From assembly GCA_003971905.1 (NCBI GenBank), contig RSEE01000023.1, positions 62,001-126,000 of the forward strand: DNA of 64,000 nt, given 5' to 3'. The notes below the pieces were generated by a model. That model was not told the origin of the DNA, made no database searches, and worked only from the letters and a program-made list of their open reading frames with translations. Shown here one piece after another: positions 4,858 through 64,000 of this stretch. Both the position numbers and the translations under genes were made by a program. Each line of letters begins with the position of its first letter. Position 1 is the first letter of the stretch. The stretch is from Moniliella sp. 'wahieum'. Lineage: Eukaryota.

Positions 4858-5411
4858 GGCGGGGCGGCAAGAGACGGGGCCGCCAGACGTCGGCGGCGGA
4901 GAGCAGAAGGGCGAAGGCGATGGGGAGGGCGGAGGGCGGTCGCTGGGGCGCTTGAGCTTGAAGGCTGCGTGCGGCGCACCGGTGTGGGCCGCTCGCGCGC
5001 TCAGAGCAGCGGCACAAATTGGCAACACCCGGCCTTCGTCGCATCTCAGACGGTGATCGGAGCCTCTCCCAACACGCGCCCGCCCGCCCCTGCCGGCCCG
5101 CCACCAGCGCCCCACGTGGCCACTGCCGTGGTGCGGCTCCGGCACTCACCGGTGTTGCTCACCGGTCAGCCGACGCCCCCCGTGTCGCATGTCACATGTC
5201 ACATGTCACATGTCCATGCCCCTAGTTACTAGTCCAGTCACGCGTCACGCAGTCATGCGTCATAGTCACGCTGGGCGGACGCCGCTGTACGCCGATTGAA
5301 ATGTGCACGTTCCATCGCCATCCTGTATTCCGCCCCCCCCCGCGCCCATCCCACCACTTCCGCCTCATGCCGGCCCGCAGTGCCCCGCCGCCACCACCTT
5401 GCGCCTCTGCC

Positions 5412-6365
5412 ATGGCGTCCGGCACACTCCAAGGCGCCGCGCTCGTGGAGCAGGCCACCTCGTCTCCCACCCAGTTTGGCTTTGGCGAGTTGGTTGCAGA
5501 GCCTCTGTCCGCACCCTCGCGCCCGCCCCGCCTGGCACCCCCGACGCCCGTGCTTACCAGCTTGCCGCCTCTTTGCCTGCGGCACTGGACCGATTACGCT
5601 GCCTCCCCCGAGGCCTTCTCCTTGACTCCTGTGCAGGAACACAAGCTCAAGCTTCTCTCTCTCATCTCCCTCGTTGCTTCGCAGCTGGAATTGCGATATG
5701 CCGAGCCCAGGGTGCTCACTGCCTTGGGCTGTACCGACGCTCGCGGCGCCGAGGCGCTTATCGCCGATGCGATCGCCACCGGGATCCTGACAGGGCACAT
5801 TGACGAGCCAAGTAAAGTGTTGTACATCGCCTTCGTCTCACCTCCCGAGATCTGTCCACAACTCCATCCAGCAACACACCCGACCTGGCAACACTTGCCA
5901 CCAAGCTGGACGCATGGGTGCAGACCATCAAACGGGCCAAGCGGCGGTGGCAGCACAAATGCAGCAGATCCGACAAGAGCCGGATGAGAAAATGGCCACC
6001 CGCCTTGCGCACGAGGAGCTTATCGCTTCGCGTATGCCTCTTGCCCTGTGGAGAGCTGCCAACAACCCCACGTCCCAGAGCGAACAGCGGGTGTGGACCG
6101 AATCTGGCGAGCGCGGCCCACTCGGGGGTCGTCACCGTGGATAATGGGCAAGAACCGAGCCAAACCCAAGCCGGCGTATGTCTGGGTCTATCTTGCGTTG
6201 CGACCGAAGGGTCCCTATCGGGAGGCTGACTCTTTCATATTTGGCTCGTACAGGAATCGACCGGTGGTACCAAAGGGAGGGCCTCGGATCAAGCGCTCCC
6301 GCCAGGGCCATGGGCCCGTGTCAGCCCCTGACTATGATGAGGACGATGTGGTGATGGAGGAATAA
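5412..6365 (+). CDS. PCI-domain protein, COP9 signalosome subunit 7-like (end uncertain)
   Basis: LVEQATSSPTQFGFGELV...WTDY...KLKLLSLISL...LRYA...AEALIADAIATGILTGHIDE resembles the CSN7/eIF3m PCI domain. Confidence 0.7.
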
Positions 6366-6830
6366 GTCCCTTTTCTTGCATTATAGCGAAGCTTTATGTC
6401 ACAGACCTTCTCACGAGGTCTCGCGGCAATCCCCCAGCAATTCTAGCCGTCCGTCACCATTGGTGAGCATTGTATACTTACATTTTTCATTATCTTAACG
6501 ATGTGAGCTTTGTATCTACCTCGAGATGTTCCCCCACGTCAAGCTGGAAGAGCTGGCCGGAACGAATAAAACGCGAGAGCAGCCTCAAGCCCCGATAGCT
6601 GATAGCTGAGAGGAGATCTGAGAGAGATGAGATTTGATGGAATCGATGATTTCAGACGATCAGTGATTGATGAACTGAGGTGTGGGTGTTATGTCAGCAT
6701 CTGACTTTCGTTCGTCACGCGTCAGTGTTTCTTCAAGGACTGCTGCTACTCCCACCAACTCAGCTCTGACCTGGACTGCCGGGCTGGCTGGCCAGTGTAG
6801 TGTGCTCTTTGTACGGTGGTTGAGCAGCCA

Positions 6831-16119: not shown

Positions 16120-17140
16120 CGCGCGCGCTGAGAGGGATCTGAGGATCTGAGAGAGGAACTGAGCTTGAGGCCTGAGGGAGGCCTCAGGTTTGATTGAGAG
16201 GTTACCCGTTACGGCTGCGGTTTTTGAGAGGGGTTTTCTGCGGAACTGATCGCGATGCTCGCCTATACACCAGGCTATTGGTAGAGCAGTACTAGCGTTT
16301 GAAGCTTTTGAAGCTTGAAGCTTGAAGCTTGAAGCTTGAAGCCAGCTTGAGGTGTGTGGAGATCGTAGAAAGTTCGGTTTTGAGTTCAAAGTAAAGTACG
16401 TATATATATACACGGTGAGTTCGGGCTCGGCGCTCAGGCTGAGCATCGAGCAGCCTTAGACCTTAGGGCCTTAGGCCTTATTCCTCAGCTGAGGCTCAGC
16501 CTGAGCGGCTCAGCCGCCAAGTCCCAAAGCCCCAAGCGACGTCGTCAACGCGTCAACGCGTCAACGCGTCAACCGTCAACGTTCAACGTCGTCATCGTAT
16601 TAGGGTACGTAGGCAGAGCACACTACTTAGTACTTACCGAACTTATCCGTCGGCAGTTACTAGTTACTAGGGTTAGATCTTAGATCTTCGATCTTATTAG
16701 ATCGTTTGTGGATTCTCGACTGGATGTTAGATCTTAGATCTTAGACAGGGCCAACGCTAAAAGCTCAAAGATGCAGACTGAGTTGCCGAGTACCTGAGTG
16801 GCTAGTGGAAGTGACTAGTGACTAGTGACTAGTGACTAGCGATGGCCGAGTGATCGATGATCGATGATCGATGACTATTCGATCAGAGACTGATCTCTCG
16901 CAGATCGTCTCAGCACTCCAAGATCTAATCATCCGATCGACAATCTTAGATCGTAGATCTCACAGCTTAATAGGCGAGAGGTACGTATGTCAGGAATAAC
17001 GCACTTCCTGTATCGGAAATGGGGGGGCAACCTCCGCCTGGCTAATCACCGAGGTAATGCGACTGGGGCATCGCGCAGCTTTTAGGCTTTACGCCTTTCG
17101 CTTTACCCGCGTTATTATACCGGTTACCGGTTACCATATA
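16120..17140. repeat. Cluster of short tandem arrays built on palindromes
   Basis: (GAAGCTT)n 16310-16342, (GTCAACGC)n ~16543-16573, (AGTTACT)2 16655, (TTAGATC)2 16673 and 16727, (GTGACTA)4 16811-16839, (TGATCGA)3 16851-16874, (ACCGGTT)2 17119, plus dense CTNAG sites. Confidence 0.9.
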
Positions 17141-17569
17141 GCAGTTGGTACTTTGGTTATCTGCTCACATGATGTATGTCACATATCTCACACCACATAT
17201 ATCTATCCTCGGCCTCAGGCCTCATTGCAGGCCCCCCATCAGCCCTCCCCCAATCTCGTTCCCTTTGTTTTTCCCCACGTCCGTATCCCTGCCGTCACGC
17301 TCTTTCGGCCACAGTACCAAGTCGCTTCCCTCATTAACATATTGGAGCAGCGCTTTCTGTTTATCGAATCAGCCTCTCTCCTCATCACCACCATCCAAAT
17401 ACACAGTCTCTCCCCCGCTTCCAGTTTTCTCATCCAGGGTGAGTACTCTCCCCCCCTTGTGGTTACTGCCACCTGACGGAATGTTGACCGGGAAAGGTTC
17501 TCCACGGCCCCACTACATCAGAAGTTATTGAACCATGACGGAAACCGTCCCCCTCTTCCTCCCATCAGT

Positions 17570-25335: not shown

Positions 25336-25836
25336 TTCTGTTTAACTTCTGAATGCTCCAGTAGTCTTTCTGATTGACTAGGCACAAACTGACACAAAGA
25401 CCTGCCTGTGAGTACTGAGTCTACATCGTACGCAAAACGCTTTTCGCGTGTCAAATGCCAAAGCTCTACAAATGCTACAGTTAGTGTGGTATAGGGACTA
25501 CTATGCAGGTTGTTAATGGTGCGGGGATTCGAATCGACAGTTCCATAACATCAGCAAAAGAGGTGGAAGGCAAAGGGTCTTAGCTGGGTGGTGCCGGGGA
25601 GGTGGAAGTGCCTGATGAGACCTGGAGTCCTGTTGGTCCTGTAGGGTGATACGATTGCATTGATGGTGGTGGTGGTCGGAGCCAACCAACGGCGGCCACA
25701 GGGACATCAACCGGCCGGCGACATTGAATCTGGCTGCGGACCAAGAGAAGCAAGGAAACATCGGAGCTCTTAGGCTTGAAGAGGGGCTGAATGGACCTTG
25801 GCCAAATGCACAAGACACCTCGTGGCTCAAAAGTGC

Positions 25837-27030: not shown

Positions 27031-28478
27031 GGCGGTGCTTACGTAGGGTGCGCATGGGGGCAGTAGGCTTGGGAAGCATGCGCTTATGAATGGCTTATGC
27101 CCGAGCCAAGCTGCCGGTTCGCACTCGGGACGCTTTTTGGGCAACGCAGGGCAACGCCCCCGTGCGGCGTCACAGCATCACCGCCCACTGTCCGGTAATT
27201 GACGATCGGTGACCTCGCCAGTCACTAGTCACTGCGCCACTAGGTCATCGGCGAAGTCACCGGTCGTCCACTGTGCATCCCGTTCCGGTTCTACTTGGTC
27301 CGGCCCCGACGCCACCCCCTCCAGGCAGGATGCAGCAGGGGCCAGCCTTGCTTCCGCTGCCTTCCAGTGTTCCACCCTCTCTTCTCGTGCGTTCGTCTCC
27401 GTTCGACTACGTCCAACGTTGCGGCCTGAGGCCTGCTCTGTTACATGCGGCGAGCATACGGAGCAGGCCCGGCTTTTGCCGTTTATAACGGGGTTTTGGC
27501 TCCAGTCCTGCGAGCATGCCCTCATCGACCTCATCGGTGTCCACAAAGGAGGAGGGGATTGCCCCCCAGTGCCGTCACCATGATTGGAAGGGAGTTGGAA
27601 GAAGCAGCCTAGAAGACACGGACTCCTTGCGTTAGACATCGCTACAAAAACGGGATGTGACATGTGAACGTTGAACCGTTGAGTAGTAGTTGAACGTGTT
27701 GAGCCTAGTAGGGCATGCAAGCGAGTACAGTCGCATTCGTGTTGAATGCGACCCTAACGTGACGGGAGCGCCAGTAAACCCAAGCGCCCTCTGCGTCCGC
27801 GCCACCAGACGAGGGCCGCTTGCTGTCCGCCCCCAAACACCATTGCCCATCACGGCCGGCGGACGAGTATGACTACCTCAACGACTCTTTCGAAGCACGC
27901 AGCGTCTCACCAGTCCGCCTCTCATTATCCCACGCGCCCGCACCATATCCTTCTGCGCCACGACATCTCCTTCCGCAGCGGCGTGCGCATATAGCCCAGC
28001 TATAGCCCGTTCCTGCAGTGGACAGAAAAGCGGGCCACCTGGGTGTATCGGCATTCGAGGCAACAATCTTTTGTTTTCAACAGCTGGTGAGAAAGAGGGA
28101 TGATGCTTTGTTTGCTGTGCTACTACTACCCCGGACTGTCAATCTGTGAAGAATTGTAACTCGTTGTCGGAGGGATTATGCAGCGCTTCCTGCAACGTTT
28201 CCATATGTGCCCAACCTTCCCCTTATGTGCGGCAATAGTTTCATAGTGTCCAATGTAGGTGGCTTCCAGTAGAAGCAGAAACAGGAAGAGAGACAGGATG
28301 CTGTCTAATGATAGAAAAAGTGAATTAGGACCACAATAACACAAGTGTCCCGCGGAGGGTTCCGCATCCAACGGCCTGAGACCTGAGGCTCAGGCCCGAA
28401 GGAGAGCCAGGGCGACAAAAGAAAGTTTTGAGATGCACGGTAACATGTAACAGACGACGATCGGCATTTAAAGCCCAC

Positions 28479-29732: not shown

Positions 29733-31375
29733 GCGGGGCAAAAGAGTTGGTGGTGGGTGGGAAGCAGACGCGTGCGCAGCTGGCCTGATGGGCTTCTTTT
29801 AATGGGGCTACATACTGCGCGGCGTTGCCGATCAGCGGCGGGGATGCAGGATGCCGGTCAGCCGCTGAGCCGGGCGGCCGCTGAGCTCAGCAAACACTGC
29901 ACGGCTGGGGGGCGCACCAGACAGGCCCGAGGGGGGTGCATGCTGTGACGTGTGGCATGCAATGGGTGCCCTGCTGGGGGGCGCGGCAGCCGGCTGCCAC
30001 ACGGGCGCACTAGCATGCACTGGCATGTACTCAGTAACTCGGTACTCACAACTGACATGTCACAGCAACGCCTAATGCTTGCAGGATGTATGGTAACCTC
30101 ATCATCGACAATATCGGCATCATCGATCATCTGAACAGCGACCACCGATCACCAGGATTACCCAGGTTGGGAGCCTCACCAAATCAGCCAGTCAAGCTAG
30201 TCACCAGAAATGGGCAACGAGTAACGTTTAACGTTTAACGTTTAACGACCATCGATTAGGGTCGAGTAAATGACACAGAATCGCACGCACCGCTAGGGTA
30301 CACGAACCACACGGCAACGCCTGTCGAACGCCGGGAGATGGAGCAGCATCGACTATTGAAGCAAGGGGAAAACGACAACAACGCCAAGTATACCATCAGC
30401 CACGCACTCATCAGGAACCGTTCTTCCCTGTGGTAGGGCATAATGTTGAGATCAATAAAACGCACGCGGGCAAACTAGGTCGCCATGACGCCAAGAAGAT
30501 GTTTGAGCTCTAGACGAAATTATATTGAGGGTGCCGAGTACCACCGAGTAATGAAGCCTGAAGCGAAGCTTGAAGGCCGAGGGGTCTTACGCATCAGCAT
30601 TACATCACGCCTCGCCTGGCCACCCTCATCCACTCGCGCATTTTCGGTTTGGAAGCGATTGGGGTAGCCGGTAGCCAGAGGGACTTGTTGGCCTGTTAGC
30701 GAGACGCCATTGGTTTCCCAATAGGGTTATTGGCGCGTTGGCGCGAGCTAGCAACACATCCTGGATTGTGTAACGTTTCCTAGTCCCTTCTGCCTGCAAA
30801 TGATATTGGATCTACCCTTCCCACAATCGGATGTAGCGCGACTGGCGACCCCGGAGACACGAATGTGCATCAGTGTGGTGCCAGCCCAGTCACTAGTCAG
30901 CCCTGTAACTCGTTTCGAGTTGCCTCATGAAGTATAGCTCGCGGCGTACCCCGTCCTCCTCTGTCGCATTCATCGTGCTCGGAACAGTGGATCATGAGAC
31001 GGCGGGCGATAAACGGTGAACCATGGTGGTTATGTGGGTTACCCTGACCTCAGTGTGGCCATGAGCCTTGTCGTCAACTAGTGCTGTAGAACACGTCACA
31101 CGTGGCATCGCGCGTGTGGTAAGGAATTGTAGCCAACTTGCAGTCTGTCTAAGGCCTACTGTGCCCCCCTAAAATGTGCTCTAAGTGGATACAGAAACGA
31201 GTGACAATCGCAAGGTGCTGGTAGGCATACTTTGAAAAGCTTGAAGGGCTTGAAGTGCTTCAAGCTCCACGACGGTTTCGCAACAAACGGGGTCCCCAAA
31301 TGGGACCCAATTAGTCCATGCTTGACGTCGGTCGGGAGTTTTGCCTAGACCACACACCACCAGCCGTAATCACGC

Positions 31376-31786: not shown

Positions 31787-32311
31787 GTTGATGGACTTGC
31801 TAAGGCAATCTGGTGGTTAGCCAAAGCACTGTGGCAACTAGCTGAGCCGAGTCAAATACACGAGCAATAGGGTTTGGGCGTTTTTTCTGCACAGCAAATG
31901 AGCTGCGGTAATAACCCTACTAATTTACGCCATCGCGTCTTGGATCATCGAGATCATCGATCATCGACCACTTCGGAAATCGCTGATTATTCCGCTGTCG
32001 ACTGCTGCCCATTTAAAGTACCTGTGGGACCCAAACTATACCGAACCTATTTGCGAGCTCTTCAGTTTCTGTCCATCTGCAGGCAATGGCGCTTGACCTG
32101 TATCTTGTGCACGTGAGCTCAGACGGGACGTTGCCTACTATCTATATATCACACAGGATAGATCCTGTTGGTCCGGTTTGACAAAAAAAGTACAGTCCGT
32201 AGGCCGTTTGGCCAGAGGCGGGGCGGGGGGGGGAGAGGATGTCGGGAAGAGAAGTAAACGAAAGGAAGAGAACATGCCCAGGAAACGTTATTTGTCGTGT
32301 AATGCACACGA

Positions 32312-37977: not shown

Positions 37978-40900
37978 GGTGCAGAACATGTCAATTTGTT
38001 ATCCGGGGTGGAAGGGGGGATGAAGTACGTGAGGTCGTGAAGCCAGAGCAGACAGAGCAGGGTAACGTGAAAGGGAGTGCAATAGACATCCCTCGAGGGG
38101 GAAAAAGTGGTATATCTGAGGAGGGGAAGATGGGGCTTTAGTACGTTTCCGGAGTAGACGGTTCCGGCGTCTTATCGCCAAGAGACGATTCGGCCATCTT
38201 TTCATCCTCCACTTTCTCCTCTCCAATCTTCTCCATGTCCGCCGCAGTCACGAGAGCGGCAACGTCGCCCTTAACCAAAGCACGGCGCGAGGTGAAGCCA
38301 GGAGGGCACCACGTGCGGCTGTTCCAGGGCTTGCAGCTCGGGTCGTGGTACATCAAGTCGACTTGCTCAAGAGTAAGCCCCTGGGTCTCCCGGACGAAGA
38401 AGAAGACGAGGAGAGCGTTGACAATGTTCCAGGCAGCAAAGATGAAACCGTAGGCTGCGAATGAAAGAGGTCAGCGCGGGATCGATACAACCAGAGCCCA
38501 ACGACATCAGGAGAAATATGCGTACCATAGCCAATATTGCCCGTAATGGGCTGCGTGAAGAATGCCAGAGCAAAGTTCCAGGCCCAGTTGGTGGCAGTCG
38601 AAAGGGCCGCTTGCTTGGAACGAGTGCGCGCGCCAAAGTTCTCGCCGCACCAGACCCACACAGGAGACCATGTGCAAGCAAGGCAGAAGACAAAGAAGCA
38701 GCCAGCAACGGTCATCAGGTCACCCACTCCCTTGGACAGGTGGGGCTGGCCCATGATACCGCTCTCGTTACCAGCCACACCCGCGATGGCAAAGACGAAC
38801 AGCCACAGCGAGCATCCAAGCGCGCCATAGAAAAGCGTGTTGCGGCGACCCCATGCTTCCACCATCCACAGACCGGGGGCAGTGCAGACAAAGTTGACCG
38901 CACCAAGAATGATTTGGGTCACGTACGAGTCCTTGAGACCGGCGTTGGCAAATACCTGGTTGCCATAGAAGAAGAAATCTGGGGAGAAGAAAAAGAGTCA
39001 GGAAGGGAGCGCTTGGGAAGTGGGAGTGTAACGTACAGTTGCCGCCACAGAGTTGCTGCCCCATCTGAAGCGCCATGCCCATGCACGTCCGGAAGCAAGT
39101 CGAGTTTTCGAATTTGAAGCAGTCAGCCCACGTTGCGTCGGCGGCGTTGGCAGCTTTTTCCTCCTCGATATGCTGGATCAGGTCCTGGTACTCCGACTCG
39201 ACTGTGGGTCCTGGTCCGCGACGCTCACACCATGCATCTGGGCGATCGCCCTCTTCGCTTCATCGTACCGACCTTTTTGTGCGCTAATGGTGGTGACTCG
39301 GGCGTCAGCATCGCAACTGCGCCCTGAAGCATGGCAAACACAAAGCCAATCGCAACCAATACTCGCCACGATGCCGAGTCGTTGTTGCCAGCGTACCGCG
39401 TACCGATGGCAATGGCGTAGGCCAACAGAATGCCAAGGGTAATCGCAAATTGGAAGAAACCGCCCATCATACCACGGATTTGCCGGGGCATGAGTTCGGA
39501 TTGATACACAGGCGCAAGGGCGGAGGACATGCCAATGCCGTAGCCAGATACCAAACGGCCAATGCCAAATTGAACCCAGGAGTGGACAGAGGCGACCTTG
39601 ATGATGCAACCGATGATGATCCACAGAGCTGACACCTGGACACTGTACTTTGTGCCCAGGCGGTTTTGCCAGATGTTGCCCGTAAGAGCGCCAATGCCAC
39701 AGCCGATCGACATGAAACCAGTGATCAGGCCCTGGAGCCAAGGCGACCAGGCCTTCTCATACTTCCCGTCGGGGTAAGTGACCGCCCCCGTAGCAAAGCG
39801 GCGTTGGAAGTCTTGCATGGGGTACAAACCAGCCATAATACCGGTCTCATAGCCAAACTGTTGTCATGAAAATAACAGCGATCAGTATGGGATGTTCTTC
39901 ATTTGGTACACGAAAGAGGGGGAGACATGGACATACGTTAAGACCGGCACCGATGGTCACCAGGGTCACCAAGTGAACCATAATGCCGATAGAAGTGCCT
40001 CCGAGTTTCATGGTGAAGCCGAAGAAGTAGTGGTAAGGAAATAGGAGTGCGGAAAGAGTAGGAGTGTGTGAACCTCAAAGAGGTGGGCGTGTGGCTGGTA
40101 TAGTAGCCCGTAGGGTGTGGGTTGGTTACTTTGGGTGAGAGAAGACGGAGGAGAGATGTTGTGGACAAGAAGAACAATCGATGGGGTCGGTGGTCCTCTG
40201 TTATATACCCCAAAGATGTATGACACAAGAGAGAAGACTAGGCGCCAAGAAGCCAATGCAGGAACAAGCACAACAGTACAGGAACAATTGCAACCGTTGC
40301 ATGGGGGAACTTTTGCCAGCCACAAGGGTCATCCATCAGTTGACCAGCGGTCCTGCATCATGCATCATGACCATTCCATATTCATCTCAGGCTCTTGATC
40401 CCCCTGTGAGACATGTGAGGCCTGAGATCTGGCGATCAGTCGATCAGGAGCGAAGAAGGCAAAGGCCTAAGGCCTACCGCATAACAGTAACCCCCCCCTC
40501 CACTCTGTACGCAACGTTCACAAAATGCTTAATGCAGCGCGCCCTCCCTGCGATTGCAGGCTGTTCCTCTGCGAGAGGTATCCACAAACGCCGTCCCAGA
40601 CAGCACTGCGACTTCGATGCGAGTGCGCAGATGTGGGGACTATGGACAGCCATACGGAGCCCCAGGGAGCCCCACTATTATGCTCTAGGTCCCAGACACG
40701 CAAAGCCTCTTGCCTCTGCCCACAATATAGCCGCCATGTTTCAGGTAATCAAATGTCTATAGGCTCTAGGCACGAGGCCTGAGGCCGGCCTGCGGTCTTT
40801 CCGGACCTTGCCGGCGGTACGTATGTTTCTAGTGTGAGTGATATAATAGCCTCGGCCGCACTTCTGTCACGCCTCCCGTCTGACCAGTGTCCTTATGTAG

Positions 40901-41451: not shown

Positions 41452-44400
41452 TTCTCTAGAGCTCATTACTGGTGGCTTAAAACGCGTTTTGTAGGAAGCT
41501 CCGCGGAAGGAGCAGGGTGATGATGCCGAGTCGCACAAACCCGCCACACACGAGGCAACCACCAATGTATCAGCCACGCTCTGGTCCGCCCCCTAGCCAT
41601 GGCAAGTGGCCTGGGGCAACTCCCGAAGGAGCAGTAGGTAACTATATGCAGCCGTTGTGTTTTGGCCAGTAGGGAAACGAGGTCAATGTTTTTTTGCTTT
41701 TGAACATATACTGTTGCACACTGTGGCTGTTGTGAGTGCTGGCACTGTCCTTCTACTTAGAGGTTTGTTTCAGGCTTAGTCTGCGCCGCGCGTCCCAGTG
41801 CAGTGGCGCCTCCACCATTTGTTCCAATTGTAAGGCGCTCGTGTAGTAGACCGCTGTTGGGGCATTCCTGTGTTCTTCTCTACCCCCGCCACCTCTTCGC
41901 TCACCTCGCTACCTCGTTCTCGCTCATCTGCTTCTGGTAGCTCAGGCCGCGCCATCTGCCTGCCCTATAGTACGCCACTACAGTACCTTCCATCCGAAAA
42001 GAGAGGGAGAAGGTAATACACATAGTTGTACGGCATATCATCATTACAAAACGACTAGAGCCAATCCATTTTTGGAAAGTCCTATGCCCTCAGCACACAA
42101 TAACGCGATGCGGAAAATGAAGGTGAGGTTAACCCCCCCCCTATGAAAGGGGGGAATTGAGGCAAGAAGTGGCATCAATTGTTAAGGAGGGTAAACCGTT
42201 CCCCTTTAAGTGCGCTCCATTCGCCCTTGATGACCGATCGGCCACATGTGGGGGATTGTCTTTTGGACCGTAATTCATCCATGAGGTCAGGGCAGAACGA
42301 CAGACCATGTGACTACAGAGTTGCTTCTAGGCTAGCTGCGACTGTATATATATTATCCCAATGGCAGTCGGGCCGGCACAAAACAGCATAGGAAACACGA
42401 GTGTGGCAGGCACCCACTCCCGGTGGACAAACAATGCTTGCACCTCGTTCCGCCACAGGTTGTCTCATTGGTAACAAAGGTTCCTATTCGTGGCCGTATA
42501 TGCGTAGCCGAAGCGGATCAAGAGCCGATGAGACGAACAAGGAGATGGAAGAGCCGCGGCAGTAGGCAGGGAACTTGTCGTAGCACTTTCATCCCCTTTT
42601 TGGGTTGTCGTATAGGTTGTGTGGCTCTAGTAGCCGATCTCGGTGATATCGGTCGACGTGGAAGAAGTTCGTATTGCAGTGAATACACTGTCCGTTGCGA
42701 GCAATTCGAACGACTTCTCTCGCTGCTTGGATCCGTTTGTAGAAGACATGGGGTCGTGATCGACCCCAGTAGTTTGGCAATGATGGAGGCCTCTCTCAGT
42801 TGCTCGAGCAAAGCCATACATGCGAATCGTCCTCCATCATAGAGTCACAGGCGGATGAGAGAGTATTTGAGGAGGCATCTCCTGGTCTGCTCCCCGTCAT
42901 CCAAGAAGGGCCAATGTTTTACTTGTTGTTGGCCATCGGGTGGCTCGTGCTTTGGCCAATGTCCCTTCAGTTCTCCTCAGGCCTGGGAGTTCCGTTGTTT
43001 TCTCTCCTGTGCTTTTCCTTCTTCCGCAGCTTACCCCTGGGGGCGACTCGCTGCTTGATGTTCCTCTGTAGGCGTTGCAGAGGCTGGCTTAGACCACCAC
43101 CACCATCAGTGCGATTGCATCACCCCGAGTATCATCAGGACTCTAGGTCTCATCACATGTTGCTTAGGGAAGTGGAGCCGGGAAATGATCAGTTTCCTCC
43201 GAGCAAAAGCAGAGGCGGTCCCATTTCTGGGCCAGGGGAGCTCAGGCGGGAAACGCATTTAACGCTACTGCCAGGGAAAGACGGGACGAGATCGTGGAAC
43301 GAGATAGCAGAGTAGTGTGCATCAGTGAGGACAAACAAAATGATGGAGCTGGTTTTGCATGTGAGGCTGAGCGCCTTCTGTTGATCGCGTCGAACCAAAA
43401 TAGGGGTGAGAGGTGTAGACCAAAGTCGAGCTCTGTCACGGAGGGCTGGCACCGCCCGGGGGCCTGGGCTATTGTTGCGCGGATATGTGAAACTTTGGTC
43501 GTCGTACTGGCGGGCTTGCCAGCCATTACGAAGATCGGATTGAGTTGAATCTGATCGATGATCAGGGAGCGTGCTCTATTCTCTCGGGTAGAGCAGACGG
43601 GCCTCAGTTGAACGTTAAGATCGGATCAGAAAGGATCTGAGATCTGACCATTTAACCAACAAGGGAACGGGGTTAGGAAGGCGAAGGGCGCGCGTAGGCT
43701 CCGCCGTTATTGTCAGCCTGCCTTCGCCCGTGACAAATGCTCCAACATGAGCAGGCCAAGGCGAGAGAGCTGCAAGGATCCTGGCTTTCCAGCGACATAT
43801 TTTATCTCAAGTACAGTTAGGCAGTGTGGATCATGAGCGGGAAGACATGCGCTGGGTCGAGCCCGGACTGGGAAAGAGGAGAAGAGGAGACGAAATGGGA
43901 ATCAAGATGAGGAGTGGCACCAGAGGCGAGAGAATGGGGATGCTGACGGCATATGGCGCCCTTGCATATAGGTGGAGAGAGAGAAGCAGGTCATTTTTGT
44001 GGTCTCGGAGACATGTGTGGCCAGGGCTAGCCCTCGGACCGCTGGAGACCGCCGGGGACCCTTGCGGAGGCAACCGGACCTGGGGATATTGTTCTAAAGG
44101 CAGGCCCTCGCGTGGGGTTTATGGGACGTTAGCGAGACTAAATTGGGTGTCGAATGGTGCGTTGAGAGGTTGTGAGAACAAAGACTGAGAGGCCTGAGAC
44201 CTCAGCCTGAGAGGCCTGAGCCTCAGGTCTGACGGCTTGAAAAGTTTGACTCTTACTGGGGCGGAGTACTGGCGGTGCAACTGTCCATGTAGTAGTGAGC
44301 TAATGCGCTCAGCGCCAACGGACATACTTGCACGCCAGATTGTCGCAACTGTGCCGGCGGACTGAGTAAGACCTAAGCCGAACAACGGGCTACATAAGGA

Positions 44401-45079
44401 CACTGGTCAGACGGGAGGCGTGACAGAAGTGCGGCCGAGGCTATTATATCACTCACACTAGAAACATACGTACCGCCGGCAAGGTCCGGAAAGACCGCAG
44501 GCCGGCCTCAGGCCTCGTGCCTAGAGCCTATAGACATTTGATTACCTGAAACATGGCGGCTATATTGTGGGCAGAGGCAAGAGGCTTTGCGTGTCTGGGA
44601 CCTAGAGCATAATAGTGGGGCTCCCTGGGGCTCCGTATGGCTGTCCATAGTCCCCACATCTGCGCACTCGCATCGAAGTCGCAGTGCTGTCTGGGACGGC
44701 GTTTGTGGATACCTCTCGCAGAGGACAGCCTGCAATCGCAGGGAGGGCGCGCTGCATTAAGCATTTTGAACGTTGCGTACAGAGTGGAGGGGGGGGTTAC
44801 TGTTATGCGGTAGGCCTTAGGCCTTTGCCTTCTTCGCTCCTGATCGACTGATCGCCAGATCTCAGGCCTCACATGTCTCACAGGGGGATCAAGAGCCTGA
44901 GATGAATATGGAATGGTCATGATGCATGATGCAGGACCGCTGGTCAACTGATGGATGACCCTTGTGGCTGGCAAAAGTTCCCCCATGCAACGGTTGCAAT
45001 TGTTCCTGTACTGTTGTGCTTGTTCCTGCATTGGCTTCTTGGCGCCTAGTCTTCTCTCTTGTGTCATACATCTTTGGGG

Positions 45080-45087: not shown

Positions 45088-45274
45088 AGAGGACCACCGA
45101 CCCCATCGATTGTTCTTCTTGTCCACAACATCTCTCCTCCGTCTTCTCTCACCCAAAGTAACCAACCCACACCTACGGGCTACTATACCAGCCACACGCC
45201 CACCTCTTTGAGGTTCACACACTCCTACTCTTTCCGCACTCCTATTTCCTTACCACTACTTCTTCGGCTTCACC

Positions 45275-49480: not shown

Positions 49481-50873
49481 GATCGTACGTTCGGCCAAAG
49501 TCCTTTCGGTCCCTCCCCAGAGGGGGTTTTCTGCTTCTACTGTACCAGTCTTCATTGGTTTCCGCACGCACAGGCCCATCAGTGGCATCTGACTGTTTGG
49601 TGTCCTTGTAGGCAGTGTCGTTGGTTTGCTTATAGGCCACCATGGCCGTTACTATGTAGTGAGAATGCATCACCCCTCTCGAAGAGAGTACTGCTATCAA
49701 AACTCATCAGAGGAGGGGCCGGGCAGCGAGATGAGAATTAATCGGCATTACGAACACAGGTATTTCAGCCCACAACACCTCAAAGTCGTCAGTTGATCAA
49801 GCTGAAGAATGAGCAGCCTGTCATATGCCAAGCCTCCCTTTCCATATGCTCATTTTTGCCTCTTGCCCTTCTCTTCATGTCTCCTGATGTTGTTCTGAAG
49901 ATGATGCAAAGCGACGGGCACAATTTGACCACATACGACGTCGCAGTGGAAAACTCTTTGTGAGGCCGATAAGTCATGTCCAGAGGACTGTTAAAGACCA
50001 GAGAGCAGGCAGTTGATAGTGTATTGCATTGCGCATGAGCTACAGAGGCTAGGTAATATATTCCTGCCCTCCAACACTGGGATGAGGGAATATTGGTAGA
50101 AATGAACGTATATGAACCCGGAGGTTCCGGGCTTGGGCTACCGGCGCCACTACACCAGTGTGGCGCGACAGAGACACTCCCCTGTCCCCCTTGTACGTTT
50201 GCTAGGGCATCGCATTACGAGAGGTTGCGGTGGGAGGTAAGAAGACAAAAAGCAACGCGAATATTGTGAGCGTTGATGAATCAGCCTGCTGCAGAGCCGC
50301 ACCGGCCACACGGGCGTCGCATGTCGGATGCACGTCACATGTCACGGGGGAATACCGAGCACTGACGCGTGACGCGCGGTGCATGATGGCCCCCCTTTCC
50401 TCCGATGTGTATCACGTGGTTGCTAGCTTTAAGGAGCGTGGTGCGTACTGCGTTGGGCTAGCCTGTGGGCGCCGGCTTGGGGGCAGCCTGGCGGAGCGTC
50501 ACGCGTCACGCGTCACGCCGGAATGCAGAGCCGTTTTCTGAAGAGAATCAGTTTTCCATAGTAGCGCTGCCAGCTGCCGTTCCAATTGCCTGATGCGGTC
50601 GAGTGCCTCGTGGCACAACAGAGCTGTGCAGAGCGACGACGCATGAGGCGGGCAGGAGGCCTGCGGCCAGTGGTTAATGATTAATGGCGCCAACGAGGGC
50701 CGAGGCGAGTAGAGCGGCTCACTCAACGCCAGCCGGCCGCCTTTCCCCCTCTCCTAGCCGCCCTCCCCGCATCGTCGCTGGTGTCCGACTGCCGGCTCTC
50801 CACGCGCCGCGCCGTCCCTGCTCTCCCGGCATCGCAACCCATCTGTCTGCTTCGCCCGTCCCGCCCTCGCCCC

Positions 50874-51893: not shown

Positions 51894-53544
51894 TTACTGA
51901 CGCCGCTGGCGGGTGTCAGATCGGAGTGTACGCCCAGACCTGCGCGTACTCGGGCCTGGATCGCCAGAAGGCTCGTCAAACTCGAATGAGGACCCAGACT
52001 CTGAAGAGAACTCAAAGTCATCATATTCCTCTGCCTGGGAAGGCGGGCCTGCCTGAGCAGAGGGGCCTGCCTGAGCAGAGGGGCCTGCTTGAGCCGAGGG
52101 CCTGCCTGAGCATAACGGCGCGCCTGGCCGCGACCAGATGAGGATGTATGGCCCGCGCTCGCGGGGCGGAGGACAATGGGGCACGCCGACCACGACCAGT
52201 AACGCCTGGGGGCTCAGTAGGAGTCGCTCGGCTCCACCGTGCGAGGAGGAGGAGGAAGAGGAGCAGGATGACGGGTGAAACACGCGCGGAGGCACATCTT
52301 GTCTTAACTCAGGCTCGCGGTCTGGCGGTATCGCTTGGGCCGCTTGTGGGGGTGCGGGGGGGTGCACAGGAGGCGCCGCTCCAGGAACCACCGGGGCATC
52401 AACCATACGCGGGGGCTCTGCACCCTCAATGCGAAGGGGTGCAGGAGGCGCCAACTGACGGTTGTTGTTGTCCCGCGGGGGGGATGTAAAATAATCCATG
52501 GCCGATACCCGTTCAAACAATATAACGGTCAAGGAACGTGGTCCTCGGCAAAGGTGGAGCCGGGGGCGGGGGAGGAGTCTCTCGTCGAGGGGACCGAGCC
52601 CTGGGGCCCCCACCATGTAACATTTGTCGGGCACGGCGCTTACGACGGGTCCGTCTGAAGCGAATGCGAAACTTGAGCCCTTGATTAACAAAGGCGTTAG
52701 AGAGGACGGTTGATTCGGCCATTCCGGGGAAAGTTTTGGAATGTATACATGGAAAGGGCCGGAGTCTCCGAAGCACAAAAGGAGGTGCGGGTGCCGACGA
52801 GCTCATAGAGAACGAATTTGAGGCGGTACCAGCCTTCGAGGCGGACTGAGATGTCGGAAAGACAAAGAAAGCCTGGCTCCCTCCATCCATCCCGTAGGGT
52901 GTACATGCTCGATACACAACTTCCGGTTGTGTACCTTCGGTGAAGGTCGGAATGACGTGGAGTTCGCGATCCTCGCCTGGAGCAACGAGCATGGCTATAG
53001 AAAGTAGTGGGGATTGTCCATATACCACGCGTGATCCTCCCATCCAAGGCCCACAGGCGTCTCGCATAGTTGACCACGTTCCATGAAAGGGTCCACATCC
53101 AACAATGCCGGGTGGGTTTCGTTATCGGTGTCAACATTGGCGGGGACGTTGGTAACAGGGCGCGGTGCGCAACAACGCGCAGCTGCACAATGGGGACAGG
53201 ATCGAGCGGGCGACGTTCAGTCCGTGGTCCTGACCGGACATGCGCGATCGTACAGGATTTTGACGGACGACGATTTGGTACTCGAGCTGATTCCGACCAG
53301 TGACGACCTGCGGTGCCGCCGCTAGGTGTAACCAGTGGCGGTTGTGCCAGGCGGGGGCCGAGGGCGGGAGCCCAAGCGGCAGCTTCGCCCCTCACTTCAC
53401 CCCCCGCTTCGCGGCCGCGTCGCCGCCCGTTTCTGCGTCAGGCTCATCACGGTTTCGGACAACCAACTTCAGGCTCTGCTCCTGGCTCTGCTCCTGGCTC
53501 TGCTCCAGCCGCGGCGTCTTCGGTTCCGCGTCGAGCTCGGTCAT
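51894..53544 (-). CDS. Velvet-domain regulator (VeA/VelB/VosA/VelC family), frameshifted
   Basis: Across frames: YQIVVRQNPVRSRMSG, ERRPLDPVPIVQL, GSCVSSMYTLRD, FFVFP/DISVRLEGWYRLKFVLYE, PFHVY, KTFPGMAESTVLSNAFVNQGLKFRIR, then the NLS-like RRTRRKRR. Confidence 0.9.
52042..52111 (-). repeat. 18-bp coding tandem repeat (PSAQAG) x3-4 in the velvet C-terminus
   Basis: GGGCCTGCCTGAGCAGAG-type units on the + strand. Confidence 0.85.
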
Positions 53545-54236
53545 GATGGTGGTGAGAGGGAGAGGGATGCTTCAGTTCATAGAGGCAGCAATACGAGCGA
53601 TAGCCTCGGTGAGAAGTAGAGGCGAGCCTGCTCGCTTAGCACAAAAGAGATTCGCCAGCAGGGCAGGGGACGATCAGAACGTTCATAGGCGAGACTAGCG
53701 TCGGCAAAGCCCAAAGCAGATAGGCGGAAGGAAGGAAAAAGCCCAGTGTAGGTACAGCCGACACGAAATAGACACGCAAGCGCAGAACTGTGGGGTGGCC
53801 GGCCCTTGACTTCGCAGCTTCAATCGCAAGCATTTTGGGGGCAGGACAACCGACCCAAAGGTGTGGTCGATCGGCTGTGCTGCCGCCATTGGCGACTCGC
53901 TTACGGCTCAGCGAAATGCATGGGCGGCAGTCTGTAATGCTCTGGGTGGCCGGGGGGACCGCGTCGGCCTCGTGTCTCCAGTCGGAGGATGAATGTACCA
54001 TGAGATGGCAAGTGTGACCGTCGGACGCAGTTGGACGAGCCGTAAATTAAATCCCCCTGCGCCACTTGTCGAAATTACGGACGTCGACGACGATTGAGGC
54101 TGAAAGAGAGAGGCGGAGGAACAAGCGGCGGAAAGGGAGCAGCCGTGTTAAAGTGGACGTCGAAGGGGGATGTGCAGTACGAGGTCACAGGAACTGCGGG
54201 CATCCGCCATCCACCCCTCCATCCCCGAATCGAGAC

Positions 54237-56961
54237 ATGGCCCGACCCCACCACCTCCTTTGGCTCCTACCACTCGGAAGCCAACCCCAACACTTCTCCT
54301 CCTCCAAGTCCCGCTCCCATTCCCATTCCCATTCTCATCCTCGCTTTCAATTCCCATTCTCACCCTCGCTCCCATTCTCATTCCCATCCTCATTCGCGTT
54401 CTCACTCGCATTCCTCTCATCGCTCTGACCCCCCCTTACAGCGGAAAAAGGGCAAGGAGAAGGGAGAAAGACAGAGAGAAAGGAGCGTATATTTTACATG
54501 ACCGCCATGCTGGAAAAGACAGCAAAGTCGTCCGCTACAACCCGTTTGGGGTGGCAAGGTCTCGGCCTCGATCCCTTCTCCACCTATCGCGTGAGGGTCA
54601 AGTTATTTCACGGTGCCAGGGGGGCATTGGTCCACTTCCCAAACCTAAAAATTACGAGCGAGCTTACCTGGGACACAGGGGAGTTTGTACCCTTCATTCA
54701 CCACGAGAGGGGAGGAGAGTGTTGGACTTCCTTTCTGACTCTTCGGCCGCGAGGAGGAGAAGGAGGGAAACGGATCAGCAGCACCAACAGCAGCAACTTC
54801 GACTTCACAACAACATGGGCCTGCTTTGGAGCGGGTGGATGGGCCTACCAACCGCATTATACAGGCCACCCAAAGAGTGACAGGCATTCATCAGATCCCC
54901 ATGCCTGGCTCGACCTGGCCCGCGCCCAGGTCCACTTGGCTCGTCCCGAGCTACAATTGAGGCACAGATATCTGTTTTAGAAGTGGTATCAAGGGTGGCT
55001 GTTGTGAGGTGGAAATTCCCCTGGCTCTGGTAATGCTGTGTGCTCATCACATGAAGACCTACGGATGGGACTCGGTTCTTCCCCTCCCGCCTAATCCTGC
55101 TCCAACGGTGTACACCCAGCTTCATCACAAGGCAAGATCACATTATGGGAAGCGTTTCTATCCTCCATGCCTTCTCTTTCCTCTTGGACGCTGGAGACGT
55201 CGCTAGAGAAGCACTGCTTGGCTCTGGACGCATTGAAGGAAGAGGGAGAACTTGCCTTGGTTTCCATCCAGATCCGCATTGCCAACGTGCTGCGGCAAGC
55301 GGGACATTATGAGACAGGTTTCGCCTTGCTGCAGGCTCAAATGGGGCTTGCCACCCAGCCAGGCAATTGGGCCGATGGTGGGACGGCGAAAGCATGCCGC
55401 GTTGGGGCGAATCTACCGCTCCTACTGGCGATTCCCCGATGGAGCCCCCATCTTCTTCTGTGTTGGTACCAACTGCTTCTGAGGACCTTATCCTTGCTCC
55501 TTAAAACCCGATCTTGATCGTTGGCTTCAGGAGAATGGAACCCACTTGCCGACCCGAGGCGGGAACGACGACCACCTCGTCCTATGGGAGGAAATAGAGC
55601 CCTATCTCATTCCTGCGGACGTGGGAGGCAATCAACAAGGTGCGCATGGCCTTGTTTCAGTATATGCTTTGTCCCCTCGTTCCGGGGCTGGAACCGGAGA
55701 TTGCTGTGCTGCCTTCAGGAAGCGTTGCTTCACCCTGTGGCACTAAACAAGTTCTGGCAGGGGGATGTGCACCAGCCATTTTTCACCCTCTACCTCCTCC
55801 TGCTCTGGGCCCCGAAGGCTTTCCCCCCTCTCTTGGGGAGGGCGAGTGCGGGTTCACTCATTTGCCTCCTCCATGGGTTGCGTGGGCCCAAACTAACTTA
55901 CCCTCGGTCGAGGGCTTGCTGTCCGCATCAGTACCCTGTTTACCACTCACCAGGCACGGAGCGAAGTGTCACTGCTGATGTCGCTTGTTGGATGCACCGC
56001 CGACGATCTGTCCCGGAAAGGGAAACGTTTGCTACGCAATGAAGGTGGTTTGCATGCTTGGACTGCCTATGCCCTTGCGGCGTGTAGGGTGGTCAACTTC
56101 GTCCGATCATCGCGTGTCTTGCACATTTGGATGCAGGCCATCCCTTACTATGGACCCAGCTTGCCCTTCATGTGTCACCCGTATTTATCCCCGCTTGCTC
56201 AACCAAGCTCATCGTGCCGATGGGCAAGGGGGGAAGATCTGGACTGGGTTTTGCACCCTCCTGGGCCGGATTCGCAAGAAGAACAAGATGCCCCAGTACG
56301 TTCCGGAGCTACCAAGCCCCCTGTTGAAAACATTGTGGGAGTATACTGTCGCACCTCCTCGGGACCGGGAGAGTATTCTGACTCGATTCCTCCACCTCGA
56401 AAAAGGGGAGGCCGCACGCCTCCAACTTGCGTCATGGGTATACCGCCTTCCTACGGAGTACGCACTCCCTCCTCCTGCGGCGCGCGCATTCTCTTACAAG
56501 GGAGGTGGCTTCCCTTCATCGCCGCAACGGAGACGGGAGTGGGGCGCCTGGATGGGCAAGTAGAGAAGCTGGTACGCTCACTCGTGGCTGATCCGGAGCT
56601 TCCTTTCTCTCCGGAAGAAGAGGACGGACAGTACGTTCCCATCTGCTCCGGGTCTACTACAGTTACCACCTGCGCTGGGACGTGTCTGCCGCGCTGGAAG
56701 AGGCCGTGCAGGCCTGTCCCCACGCCCGCTCCTCTGGGCTGTCTACCTGCACTGGGCCGGCGCGAGCGCTCCAAGGACCAACACTCGGGCCTGGTGCACC
56801 GTGCCCTGCATGCCTGCCCTGGATCGAAGGCCATCTGGCTCTTGGCGCTTGCTCTCGACCCGTCGCCGGAATGCTCGCGCTCGCACAGGAACGTGGGCTG
56901 CGCCTGCTGCACCCGATACCTGCCCCCTCCCGTAAGACATGGGACTGTGTCATCCTGCTGA
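54237..56961 (+). CDS. NRDE2: NRDE-2/Nrl1 homolog (nuclear RNA processing, HAT-like repeats), heavily frameshifted
   Basis: N-terminal TSFGSY and His/Ser repeat, DPHAWLDL, NVLRQAGHYETGFALLQAQM, DDHLVLWEEIEPYL and HRALHACPGSKAIWL. Confidence 0.75.
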
Positions 56962-61631: not shown

Positions 61632-62383
61632 ATCGTTCGGCCAGCGAGCTCAGCGTCCAGCGTCCAGCGCTTGATGGATGTCTACCAGAGACAAGAGGAG
61701 GCGAGGACCAGCCTGCGCCGAGTGAAGATGTGAGGCGGTGAAAGGTTGGAGGGGAGGGGGGGAAAGAGAGTGGGATGGAGGACGCCAGGGAAGAGACGTC
61801 TTAACAGGGCGAGGAAAGCTCTTCTCCGCAACCCACCCTTTCCGATTAAGGCGATAGTAGTGGATTTGGTGCTGATGAGATGGCAGCGAGGTGCGTTGGG
61901 ATATGGAGAGCGATGTTGAGAGTGGCGAAGGCACTGTGATGAGCGAAGCGAGGTAGCCGATCGATGATGACGCAGGTTCCAAGTCGATGCGCTGGGAGCA
62001 GATGCGGCTTGTTTTGCAGAACAAAGTAGTGAGGCTGGAATGTGTGGCTGGTGGTCGTGGCCTACCTTGTCTGTCCTGGCAGGCTGCCCCTTTGGCTCGG
62101 TTCCAGGTGTGCGGAACAGAGGTAGAATATGCTGAGTACTTCAAACGTGTTCCTGCTGGAGATGGTGCATGAGCATGATGCATGAGCGCTGCGCAGGTGG
62201 CGAGGATGCTCAGCACGGGAGCAGTAGAAATTAGGTGTGACCGCGTGACCGGTGAGCTCGCCGGTAATGGGTTCTGTTTTGTCACATGTCACAGACCGCC
62301 ACCCAAAGCACCAGCCGAGTCGTCATGATGATGACCTACTTGCCATGTGGGTGATCTTGACGTCGATCCTGTAATGTCGCAGT

Positions 62384-62460
62384 CGCAGGACCCAGTCAAG
62401 TGAGCTCTCCTCTCTCAGTGCACGCAGGACCCAGTCAAGTGAGTCTCCTCTCTCAGTGCA
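62384..62460. repeat. ~39-bp direct tandem duplication
   Basis: CGCAGGACCCAGTCAAGTGAG(C)TCTCCTCTCTCAGTGCA twice. Confidence 0.9.
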
Positions 62461-64000
62461 CACAGGCCTCCGTCCTGGTTCTGTGCTCGTCTACGGGCCA
62501 CCATTTCCGTTACCTACCCCAGCCCCGGAACCGCGAGGACTGAGACTTGGCTGCAGGCCTTGTGCCAACGCTGCGGTGGGGCGAACAACTCCATAAGATC
62601 AAGATCGCACATGTGCATGAACGTTGAACGTTGAAAACGTAGTACGACCGTGGGCGCCAGTGGCCCGCGTGGTTCTTAGCTTGGATCTTATCCACGCTTA
62701 GGCTAGTTACCAGTTGCTAATAGCTTTACTGCATGCTAGTTATCTTATCGACTACAGGGTTATTAGTCACATATTAGCCACATGCACCGCTGCTGCCACG
62801 CCAGAGACCACGCCCCATGTCACCCCTGCGCTGCAAGCCATGCCGCACCAATATTGTCCCTATGACAAACTAAGGTCCCACAAGCCCTAAGATCCTAGGA
62901 CCTAAAACCTTAAGGTTTAAGACTAAAGCGAAGCTTCAACTTCCCACAGGTCTTACTTCAAGCTTCAAGCCTCACAGGCCCCAGATCTCGGAGGGCCCCA
63001 AGGCAGGCCCAAGCGACGGACGGCAGTAGTGAAGACGTGACAAGAGGTGTGGTTGCGGCCGAGTTTCCGTGACGCGTGACGCGTGACAAGCGAGATGTGG
63101 CACGCGACACTGCGCGCACACTGTTGAAATTGTTGAACGATAATCGATAATCGATGATCTCGAGTTTATATATATCGAAGCCATGAAAGTTGGTGCGGCC
63201 TGGTGTGGCTGGTGGGGTTGGCTTGAGTGAGTAGAGACAGTTAAACATCAGTGCATTGTGCTGAGGCTCAGCGCTCAGTCTGAGCGCTGAACCTCCGCAG
63301 CCTTGCTAATTTGATTAGCACCTCAGCTAGGCGCGCTGAGCCTCAGCGCCCAGGTTATAATAAGCGGTTGAGAGCAACTCTGAAAGCGCAGCGAAGCAGG
63401 TGGATTGGAACTCATAGCAGTACGTACAAAGTTTATTGGGTATCACCTGCTACACCGTTGCCCCCCTGGTCCCTGCGCGGTCGAAGGAGATTCTATCGCT
63501 TGAAAGGTATATTTCAATTTGGAACCGAAGACCGTGGCGTTGCGAGTCGATGACACATTAAATAGAGAGTTCGTCTGAGGAAAAACTCTCGGGAACTCAA
63601 CGTTCGACGATAATTGTGTTGGTAGTGGTGACGTGGATATGATTGCTTTTCGAGGTCCCCTGTAGCACGCCTAACCCTTACGCCCGCTGCCTCCTTTGTG
63701 CTTCTCCCTGTCAGTTTCTCTCTCTTTAATACAACAGTAGACCGAGTAGACCGACACCGCTTCCACATCTTTAGTGTGTATAAGACCGGAGGAACAGAAG
63801 GGGTTGGGTGATGAATCTCTGGAAATGTATTAGGGCAATGCAATCGCGGTGGTGGTGTGACATGTAACAGGAGATGGAGGTGAAGTCATACGCCGGGGCA
63901 GCAGGCCCCTTGGTAAGGATGTCACGAGCGCTGAGGTGGATTGTGGCGATAGCATACTCAGTACGCGGGAGCCAGTCGCGGGTCTCCCATTTGTCGGCTT

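Follow-up and report, generated by a model that had tools for sequence, protein, structure and literature searches.

The TNA triplet is duplicated by the transposons Tc4 and Tc5, and TTA or TAA by PIF/Harbinger elements. Cyanobacterial STRR sequences are heptanucleotide tandem repeats, and the expansion of CNG triplets is hairpin-driven. The heptamer arrays analysed here, in a 64,000-nucleotide stretch of a fungal genome (positions 62,001 to 126,000 of contig RSEE01000023.1, assembly GCA_003971905.1; hereafter the window), recall each of these systems, as a 7-bp unit made of a T-N-A triplet and a 4-bp palindrome is repeated in tandem at many intergenic sites. An earlier reading of the sequence (the original prediction) had noticed these arrays and explained them as possible iterated footprints of a TNA-targeting mobile element. 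In what follows, x and y (or a and b) stand for any bases, and a prime marks the complementary base.

Like the footprints of cut-and-paste transposons (Tc4/Tc5, PIF/Harbinger, and the hairpin-forming hAT, Mutator-like and Transib/RAG elements), the arrays display a direct duplication in which the middle base is copied, a short inverted addition at the end of a flank, the symmetry of the T-N-A site, an intergenic location and no enrichment elsewhere. They differ from such footprints in that neither an element nor a transposase was found in the window, in that the addition is one-sided and, with few exceptions, 2 nt long, and in their iteration up to five units. Their scars are also far cleaner: in the excerpted text of PMC4423477, most natural excision sites have lost bases or gained foreign filler, and 8 of 94 rice sites held exactly two copies of the duplication. 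Read as a 5-bp duplication, the repeated block TNAxy would fit the length typical of Transib, but this block is asymmetric, whereas the Transib targets (CASTG, CAWTG) are symmetric; among fungi, the extract of PMC1131882 places Transib in soybean rust only. The literature searched, whose coverage of smut genomes was incomplete, yielded no report of footprints iterated in this way or of fungal heptamer arrays that follow a palindromic rule.

Bacterial heptanucleotide repeats are alike in their period, intergenic location, low number of copies per site, restriction to certain lineages and unexplained mechanism; for the TAACTGA repeats of Beggiatoaceae, polymerase slippage was proposed in earlier work cited in a section of PMC4679880. 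They are, however, families of a single word, many of these words being non-palindromic and N often varying within an array, whereas one rule covers 21 words in the 64 kb of this fungal, not prokaryotic, genome. With CNG expansion and the GCGNAGC mini-hairpins, the arrays share a unit that pairs with itself, 7 nt giving a 2-bp stem and a 3-nt loop. The loops of these extraordinarily stable 7-nt DNA mini-hairpins are G-N-A according to part of PMC13037366, against T-N-A here, and array ends at a TNA edge and fillers built from one flank would be unexpected from slippage. Template-switch (quasi-palindrome) mutations also place short inverted copies beside existing sequence, but they give inverted duplications, whereas here the duplication is direct and N is kept.

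Enrichment of period-7 arrays and the T-N-A rule

The window contained 35 exact period-7 runs of at least two copies, compared with 3.62 in 50 dinucleotide-preserving shuffles, and 12 runs of at least 2.5 copies, compared with 0.0. Other periods were only mildly raised (34 vs 12.5 for period 6, 6 vs 0.86 for period 8, and 6 vs 0.32 for period 9). In some rotation, and with a free centre base, the unit was palindromic in 28 of the 35 runs and non-palindromic in 7. The inner pair was T...A, giving the unit ab-TNA-b'a', in 27 runs, while a single one had a C-T-G centre; at a chance rate of 7/256 (2.7%), the binomial probability of this share is 1.2e-35. The eight runs that did not obey the rule (about 3.5 expected) were near the shuffle level. 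The T-N-A heptamer pattern is real and far above chance, and the original prediction was correct in tracing many different heptamers to one rule. All 17 sites that it had listed held the unit named for them, fourteen as exact period-7 runs of at least 14 nt; those at 43553 and 63267-63290 were shorter or imperfect, the former being a 12-nt run and the latter two imperfect runs of 13 and 11 nt.

Two arrays in the right arm of a large inverted repeat mirror two in its left arm and were set aside as non-independent. The 25 independent T-N-A arrays comprised 15 different words once the strands were collapsed, their palindromes covering 10 of the 16 possible 4-bp types, and lowering the threshold to 12 nt gave 45 arrays with 21 words and 14 of the 16 palindromes. 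By length, 16 of the independent arrays of at least 14 nt measured 14-16 nt and 9 measured at least 18 nt, these being static counts and not rates.

None of the 27 T-N-A arrays overlapped an open reading frame (ORF) with Pfam support, compared with four of the seven non-palindromic runs (4924, 39391, 45881, 61651), and comparison of the gene map with the array list placed the arrays mostly in promoter-containing intergenic regions. The predicted avoidance of coding sequence thus holds roughly, as the gene map is itself rough (ORFs plus Pfam matches only, codon-usage scoring being too weak for gene definition). Single ab-TNA-b'a' heptamers were mildly raised (253 vs 200.6), and the other three centre pairs were at or below expectation. 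The dense background of CTNAG and GTNAC sites that had also been claimed proved weak: the counts were below expectation window-wide (231 vs 259.8 and 204 vs 206.3 expected, respectively) and raised in non-genic DNA only (133 vs 113.2, z 2.2; 108 vs 86.0, z 2.5), where the arrays themselves may contribute to the excess.

Palindromic units were absent from the hexamer arrays (0 of 34). Odd palindromes with arms of 5 or more were sorted by centre. With a T-N-A centre, the outer 4-mer was itself a palindrome in 39 cases, so that the whole formed a direct period-7 repeat, and was not in 4; with other centres, 57 were non-repeats and 1 was a repeat. The 39 to 4 ratio means that the direct repeat is essential and that hairpin potential alone is insufficient. 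Where two TNA triplets enclosed a palindrome, they had the same N in 59 cases (2.5 expected), complementary N in 3 (2.5 expected) and another N in 3 (3.6 expected); N is therefore copied, like a target-site duplication and as originally proposed, and not complemented. Within arrays, the filler between triplets was constant in 14 of 15 windows of three TNA, the exception lying at 27658.

Decay of the units was evident from 60 runs of 10-13 nt, and no compensating changes were seen. Purely A:T stems were found in 2 arrays vs 11 single sites, and stems with G:C in 40 vs 70. Non-genic DNA held 42 runs of at least 12 nt and 81 single perfect ab-TNA-b'a' sites (~72 expected from composition, by a hand estimate). 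In a slippage microsatellite the first duplication would be much rarer than later expansion; as about one third of the perfect non-genic sites are duplicated, the first step may here be as easy as later ones.

Fillers, flanks and array ends

The anatomy of the arrays was described on 44 independent chains of the form TNA (palindrome TNA)k, with 88 ends. The two bases outside the chain matched the filler at both flanks in 12 chains, at one flank in 24 and at neither in 8. The two ends of a chain behaved independently in this respect, and flanks matched the filler at 52-57% of ends vs 6% by chance. Outward from the terminal TNA, the periodic match was 0.68 and 0.61, then 0.35, 0.33 and 0.26. Twenty-eight ends fell at the TNA edge, and as the next three positions matched at background level only (0.21, 0.18, 0.21), these are true boundaries; 23 more divided the palindrome in the middle, and about 10 coincided with its far limit. 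The boundary classes departed from uniformity (chi-square p = 0.009 with a length threshold of 14 nt, 9e-5 with one of 12 nt), in agreement with the predicted split of the unit into TNA + 2 + 2. A slippage microsatellite or minisatellite may have any unit, and its boundaries are unrelated to that unit; here most arrays follow one rule and end at preferred positions.

The smallest recurring form was TNAxy + y'x' + TNAxy. As a 12-mer, X5 + rc(X4X5) + X5 with X = TNAxy (rc, reverse complement), it was counted 76 times vs 0.4 expected (both strands, 40 shuffles), while the 15 other combinations of first and third base gave 36 vs 7.6 when pooled. Inverted fillers of 0, 1, 2 and 3 nt between TNAxy copies occurred 6, 5, 76 and 4 times (5.4, 1.2, 0.43 and 0.1 expected), the 3-nt form being that of the period-8 array at 16543. 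The inverted addition stood at the xy end in 76 cases and at the TNA end in 6. The arrays therefore contain the palindromic addition contiguous with a flank end that characterizes hairpin-type joining (xy then y'x' after TNA), but not its additions of variable length at either flank or its frequent base loss, as exact runs dominate. They also show two target copies around a short filler (TNA, 4 nt, TNA), as a footprint does.

According to the original prediction, the target was a palindrome XY-TNA-Y'X' and the filler was the reverse complement of both flanks. The filler does hold an inverted copy of flanking bases, but it is built from one flank (xy + y'x') and not from the inverse of both, and the chains matched at one flank only or at neither indicate that a palindromic target is not required. 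At the asymmetric site 27656-27676, the CAGT filler expected from both flanks is absent, and the one-flank fillers CATG and ACGT are present.

Four independent arrays had the form 7k+2. In the 12-nt class of single events, 8 of 10 were in two phases, a post hoc count of little weight. The arrays fold with TNA in the loops; z values of the folding energy of six arrays ranged from -1.1 to -6.0, and one of the six beat all 200 shuffles. In the 8- and 9-nt variants the arms were unchanged and the centre was longer (CGTCAACG, CTTTTGAAG).

Occurrence in other genomes

The pattern was sought in 80 metagenome loci (729 kb) of fungal or other eukaryotic origin, gathered through alignment of relatives of the window ERB1 protein (37-70% identity to it). 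T-N-A palindromes accounted for 2 of their 92 period-7 runs of at least 14 nt and other palindromes for 8 of 92, which is the chance level. Among runs of at least 11 nt, they represented 45 of 2646 (1.7%) in these loci vs 59 of 309 (19%) in the window, and no single locus was outstanding. Because no enrichment was found across the 80 loci, the pattern appears, within this sample, to be specific to the host lineage, a distribution that a mobile or enzymatic agent of the kind originally proposed predicts.

Three-unit patterns with CTAG, CGCG or GATC were each matched at 120 prokaryote loci or more, which first suggested a universal physical cause. This candidate was dropped when the flanks of the prokaryote matches and the bacterial samples showed word families: the flanks were mostly non-palindromic words and, in 200 kb from three bacterial genomes taken regardless of arrays, CGTNACG was the only palindromic T-N-A word in two of them (13 of 43 and 14 of 25 runs), while the third had no such array (0 of 21), and many non-palindromic words stood alongside. 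The bacterial heptamer arrays are families of words and do not follow the rule. In a Vulcanimicrobiota genome, ACGCGT was found repeated every 7 nt, and the single base N between copies changed within an array (e.g. TGA, TAA, TGA), and the T-N-A spacing pattern had 7051 matches vs 2216 for the reversed control.

Origin of the arrays

The arrays are tentatively read as scars of a TNA-directed break-and-rejoin process, transposase-like or hairpin-forming, a reading held with somewhat less than even confidence. They would be mutational scars, neither genes nor conserved motifs, left by a lineage-specific activity that repeatedly breaks intergenic, mostly promoter-side DNA at a T-N-A triplet, each resealing leaving the site exactly 7 bp longer. 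In the smallest product, TNAxy would become TNAxy + y'x' + TNAxy, a direct copy of five bases with a 2-base inverted copy between, and the position of y'x' beside xy accounts for the 4-bp palindrome. Repeated events, or ordinary slippage once two copies exist, would then lead to arrays of up to five copies. The likeliest agent would be a transposase of the cut-and-paste type, or a hairpin-forming nuclease related to one, with its gene in a part of the genome outside the window.

This reading starts from the observed structure, T-N-A specificity, copying of N, discrete ends and lack of enrichment in the other sampled loci; we infer from the discrete breaks, the copied N and the sharp 2-nt inverted addition that DNA was broken and rejoined by a T-N-A-recognising protein, and the strict T-N-A requirement and the lack of enrichment elsewhere point the same way. 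A hairpin would be the source of the inverted dinucleotide. The strictness is enzyme-like, with one array having another centre pair, no palindromic hexamers and only 4 T-N-A palindromes without the direct repeat. Moreover, the filler is palindromic even in the eight chains that neither flank matches, and fillers from one flank alone stand at 27656-27676. That the agent is an active T-N-A-recognising, hairpin-forming nuclease or transposase, domesticated or autonomous, which writes precise +7-bp scars on the promoter side, is possible, though on the unlikely side.

Several observations weigh against a break-and-rejoin origin. Exact inverted ends (9 nt or longer, separated by 40-6000 bp) were sought throughout the window, and no TNA-flanked element emerged: of the 33 pairs flanked by a 3-bp direct repeat, a single one had T-N-A, and this pair is located within the large inverted repeat. 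The elements with terminal inverted repeats and TNA duplications envisaged by the original prediction were not found in the window. None of the 238 stop-to-stop ORFs of at least 100 aa in the window had a transposase or nuclease domain in Pfam, as had been anticipated for transposases. The scars are unusually clean and uniform beside natural excision sites, the inverted addition is one-sided, the 5-bp block TNAxy is asymmetric with TNA at one end, and the phases of the longer arrays do not form a single 7k+5 series. In addition, chains matching at both flanks (12 of 44, 27%) are far above the 6% expected by chance; palindromic context may favour the event, or the arrays matched at one flank may once have been fully palindromic and have been shortened by deletions that stopped at TNA.

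A serious rival, which we nevertheless consider unlikely, is replication or repair slippage without any mobile element, in which a looped-out ab-TNA-b'a' forms a minimal hairpin (2-bp stem, 3-nt loop) that stabilises the slipped primer, so that only self-complementary heptamers are duplicated and expanded. Base pairing is the simplest reading of outer pairs that are both perfectly complementary whatever their sequence. Seven is also the smallest workable period, as periods 5 and 6 cannot form the minimal hairpin and are not enriched for palindromes, and the constant arms and longer centres of the 8- and 9-nt variants, the rarity of all-A:T stems and the folding with TNA loops are all in line with a hairpin, while the four 7k+2 arrays have the form expected from 2-nt microhomology. 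Slippage leaves T-N-A itself unexplained, however, with one array for the other centre pairs against 27, and it cannot make the inverted dinucleotide where the other flank is unrelated, as in 24 of the 44 chains. It predicts no ends at the TNA edge, where 28 of 88 were found, and it should act in all fungi, yet the 729 kb of other loci were at chance. The folding is modest, and in the static counts initial duplication seems no less frequent than later growth. The scheme of the original prediction, in which an element inserts at XY-TNA-Y'X' with duplication of TNA and is excised through hairpins that leave two inverted bases per side and recreate the target, agrees with the TNA + 2 + 2 blocks, the copied N, the intergenic location, the lack of enrichment elsewhere and the 12 chains with both flanks matching. 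It has very little probability in this exact form, as 32 of the 44 chains lack one or both matching flanks and the mixed filler is replaced by two one-flank palindromes at 27656-27676; by the hairpin model, P-type additions on the TNA-ended flank would moreover copy TNA and give fillers starting with T, which were not seen, and the window yielded no element or transposase. That prediction is partly supported, its general class of explanation being kept and its exact scheme not.

Footprints of the Tc1/mariner type, comprising a TNA duplication and the two terminal bases of each inverted element end, would be palindromic automatically and independently of the flanks, as seen in the eight chains with neither flank matching, including the 3-unit array 16851-16874 bounded by TGA, and they would explain the ends at TNA edges. 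They are nonetheless improbable: at least 14 element families with different terminal dinucleotides would be needed within 64 kb, the flanks match the filler at far more ends than chance allows, and the window holds no such element. Selection for promoter or untranslated-region signals (e.g. protein-binding sites, nucleosome-excluding DNA or RNA hairpins) would suit arrays lying mostly in promoter-containing intergenic regions, but a single binding site cannot take the form of 21 words with 14 palindromes, and many copies have decayed with no compensating changes seen, which leaves it just as doubtful. An assembly or base-calling artefact is the least credible explanation, as the words differ by site, coding ORFs are avoided, decay is by ordinary point changes and the arrays are mirrored faithfully in both arms of the 3.5-kb inverted repeat. 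Three further models were rejected. A hAT-type model (8-bp duplication, one apex base) predicts, by inference, an A-N-T centre or 13-14-nt runs starting from N, and such phases are rare; head-to-head end fusion or fold-back synthesis predicts complementary N, which is at chance; and fill-in of 3-, 4- or 5-nt staggered cuts predicts periods of 3, 4 or 5, whereas TNAxy direct repeats without filler were at expectation.

Should a defined enzyme be responsible, the genome would record thousands of precise, sequence-readable break-and-repair events and offer a natural assay of how a transposase-like activity in a basidiomycete chooses its targets and processes ends, and tandem repeats could arise from single-copy DNA and not only grow from existing repeats. 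With a nuclease or transposase behind them, the arrays would also form a rule-based class of repeats, the eukaryotic equivalent of the heptamer repeats found in certain bacterial lineages. If slippage of 7-nt hairpins is the cause, a so far unknown T-N-A-specific property of replication or repair would differ between related fungi. On either reading, the promoter-adjacent arrays could be fast-changing regulatory variation and useful strain markers.

Distribution of the arrays in the window

The arrays and their variants are listed in Table 1. They cluster at 16100-17250 and 62100-63400, with more than 12 different words per 1.2 kb that are often 2-50 nt apart, and the word TCTTAGA recurs locally (16673, 16727, 16943). 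This clustering and the nearby recurrence of words would fit local re-targeting or local duplication.

Table 1. Heptamer arrays and related sites in the window, with positions counted from its first base
Feature	Copies	Positions	Remark	Method
TGTCACA array	3.9	5188..5214	TCA+CATG	period-7 scan
CGTCACG array	2.0	5237..5250		period-7 scan
CTTGAAG array	5.0	16308..16342	two 9-nt variants before it (16298-16316)	period-7 scan
CCTTAGG array	2.0	16467..16480	within longer imperfect array	period-7 scan
Period-8 variant CGTCAACG	3.9	16543..16589	runs into 7-nt word GTTCAAC x2; minus-strand reading TGACG+CGT+TGACG, 3-nt inverted filler	
AGTTACT array	2.3	16655..16670		period-7 scan
TCTTAGA array	2.3	16673..16688		period-7 scan
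TCTTAGA array	2.7	16727..16745	starts at TNA edge, ends at palindrome centre	
AGTGACT array	4.3	16810..16839		period-7 scan
GATGATC array	3.4	16851..16874	TGA exactly at both ends, both flanks unrelated	
GGTTACC array	2.6	17118..17135		period-7 scan
CCTCAGG array	2.0	17211..17224		period-7 scan
Single-event form TGAGTACTGAGT		25409..25420	left flank unrelated to filler	
AGTCACT array	2.0	27220..27233	directly upstream of Pirin gene	
Asymmetric site TGTGACATGTGAACGTTGAAC		27656..27676	one TGA (flanks TG, AC), one-flank fillers CATG and ACGT	
GTTTAAC array	3.7	30222..30247		period-7 scan
GATCATC array	2.3	31952..31967	downstream of stop of ITFG1-like ORF (32142)	
CATCATG array	2.3	40354..40369	left arm of inverted repeat	
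CCTAAGG array	2.1	40462..40476	left arm of inverted repeat	
TCTGAGA array	2.0	43634..43647	spacer of inverted repeat	
Mirror of 40462-40476		44811..44825	right arm; not independent	
Mirror of 40354-40369		44918..44933	right arm; not independent	
CGTGACG array	2.0	50363..50376		period-7 scan
CGTCACG array	3.3	50496..50518		period-7 scan
TGTCACA array	2.0	62280..62293		period-7 scan
GTTGAAC array	2.6	62618..62635		period-7 scan
CTTCAAG array	2.1	62956..62970		period-7 scan
CGTGACG array	2.9	63068..63087		period-7 scan
GATAATC array	2.6	63138..63155	N altered in next unit (TGA)	
Imperfect GCTCAGC/GCTGAGC runs		63266..63290	13 and 11 nt, within 23-nt palindrome	

Perfect palindromes of 11-23 nt (most of at least 13 nt) were also observed at 16431-16515, 41065-41106, 44185-44226 and 63260-63350. 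They consist of inverted CTCAG/CTGAG pairs with a G/C centre, e.g. GCTCAGGCTGAGC, and are accompanied by 14- and 22-nt tandem units. These palindromes may be a second, inverted product of the process that forms the heptamers.

Host and gene content of the window

On the basis of ORFs and Pfam matches, the window possessed fungal nuclear genes for a myosin-chitin synthase, Avl9, poly(A) polymerase, ERB1/BOP1 and RNA polymerase I A49, as well as genes for Pirin, Velvet, NRDE-2 and two sugar transporters. A single tRNA-Val (CAC) gene, intron-bearing and 97 nt long, was located on the minus strand (25239-25335) between the RNA polymerase I A49 and Pirin genes. The nearest named proteins to the ERB1 ORF belonged to Exobasidium (60%), Violaceomyces, Ceraceosorus and Tilletia, and another relative reached 79%. 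Because of this ERB1 similarity, the host is placed in the Ustilaginomycotina, probably near the Exobasidiomycetes. The G+C content of the window was 51-63%, and long ORFs without a Pfam family were found at 17477-19725, 28671-29556, 48187-49474, 50685-51661 and 54046-54977.

The large inverted repeat is a near-perfect inverted duplication of ~3.47 kb (arms 37968-41443 and 43847-47321, spacer 2.4 kb), each arm containing one sugar-transporter gene and its upstream region. The heptamer arrays of the arms are mirrored with equal copy number, and the inner and outer boundaries of the duplication showed no obvious TNA word or short inverted repeat. Longer tandem repeats outside the rule were also present, with units of 44 nt (3.5 copies, 814-968), 18/36 nt (3.8 copies, 52031-52112) and 38 nt (2.2 copies, 62384-62466).

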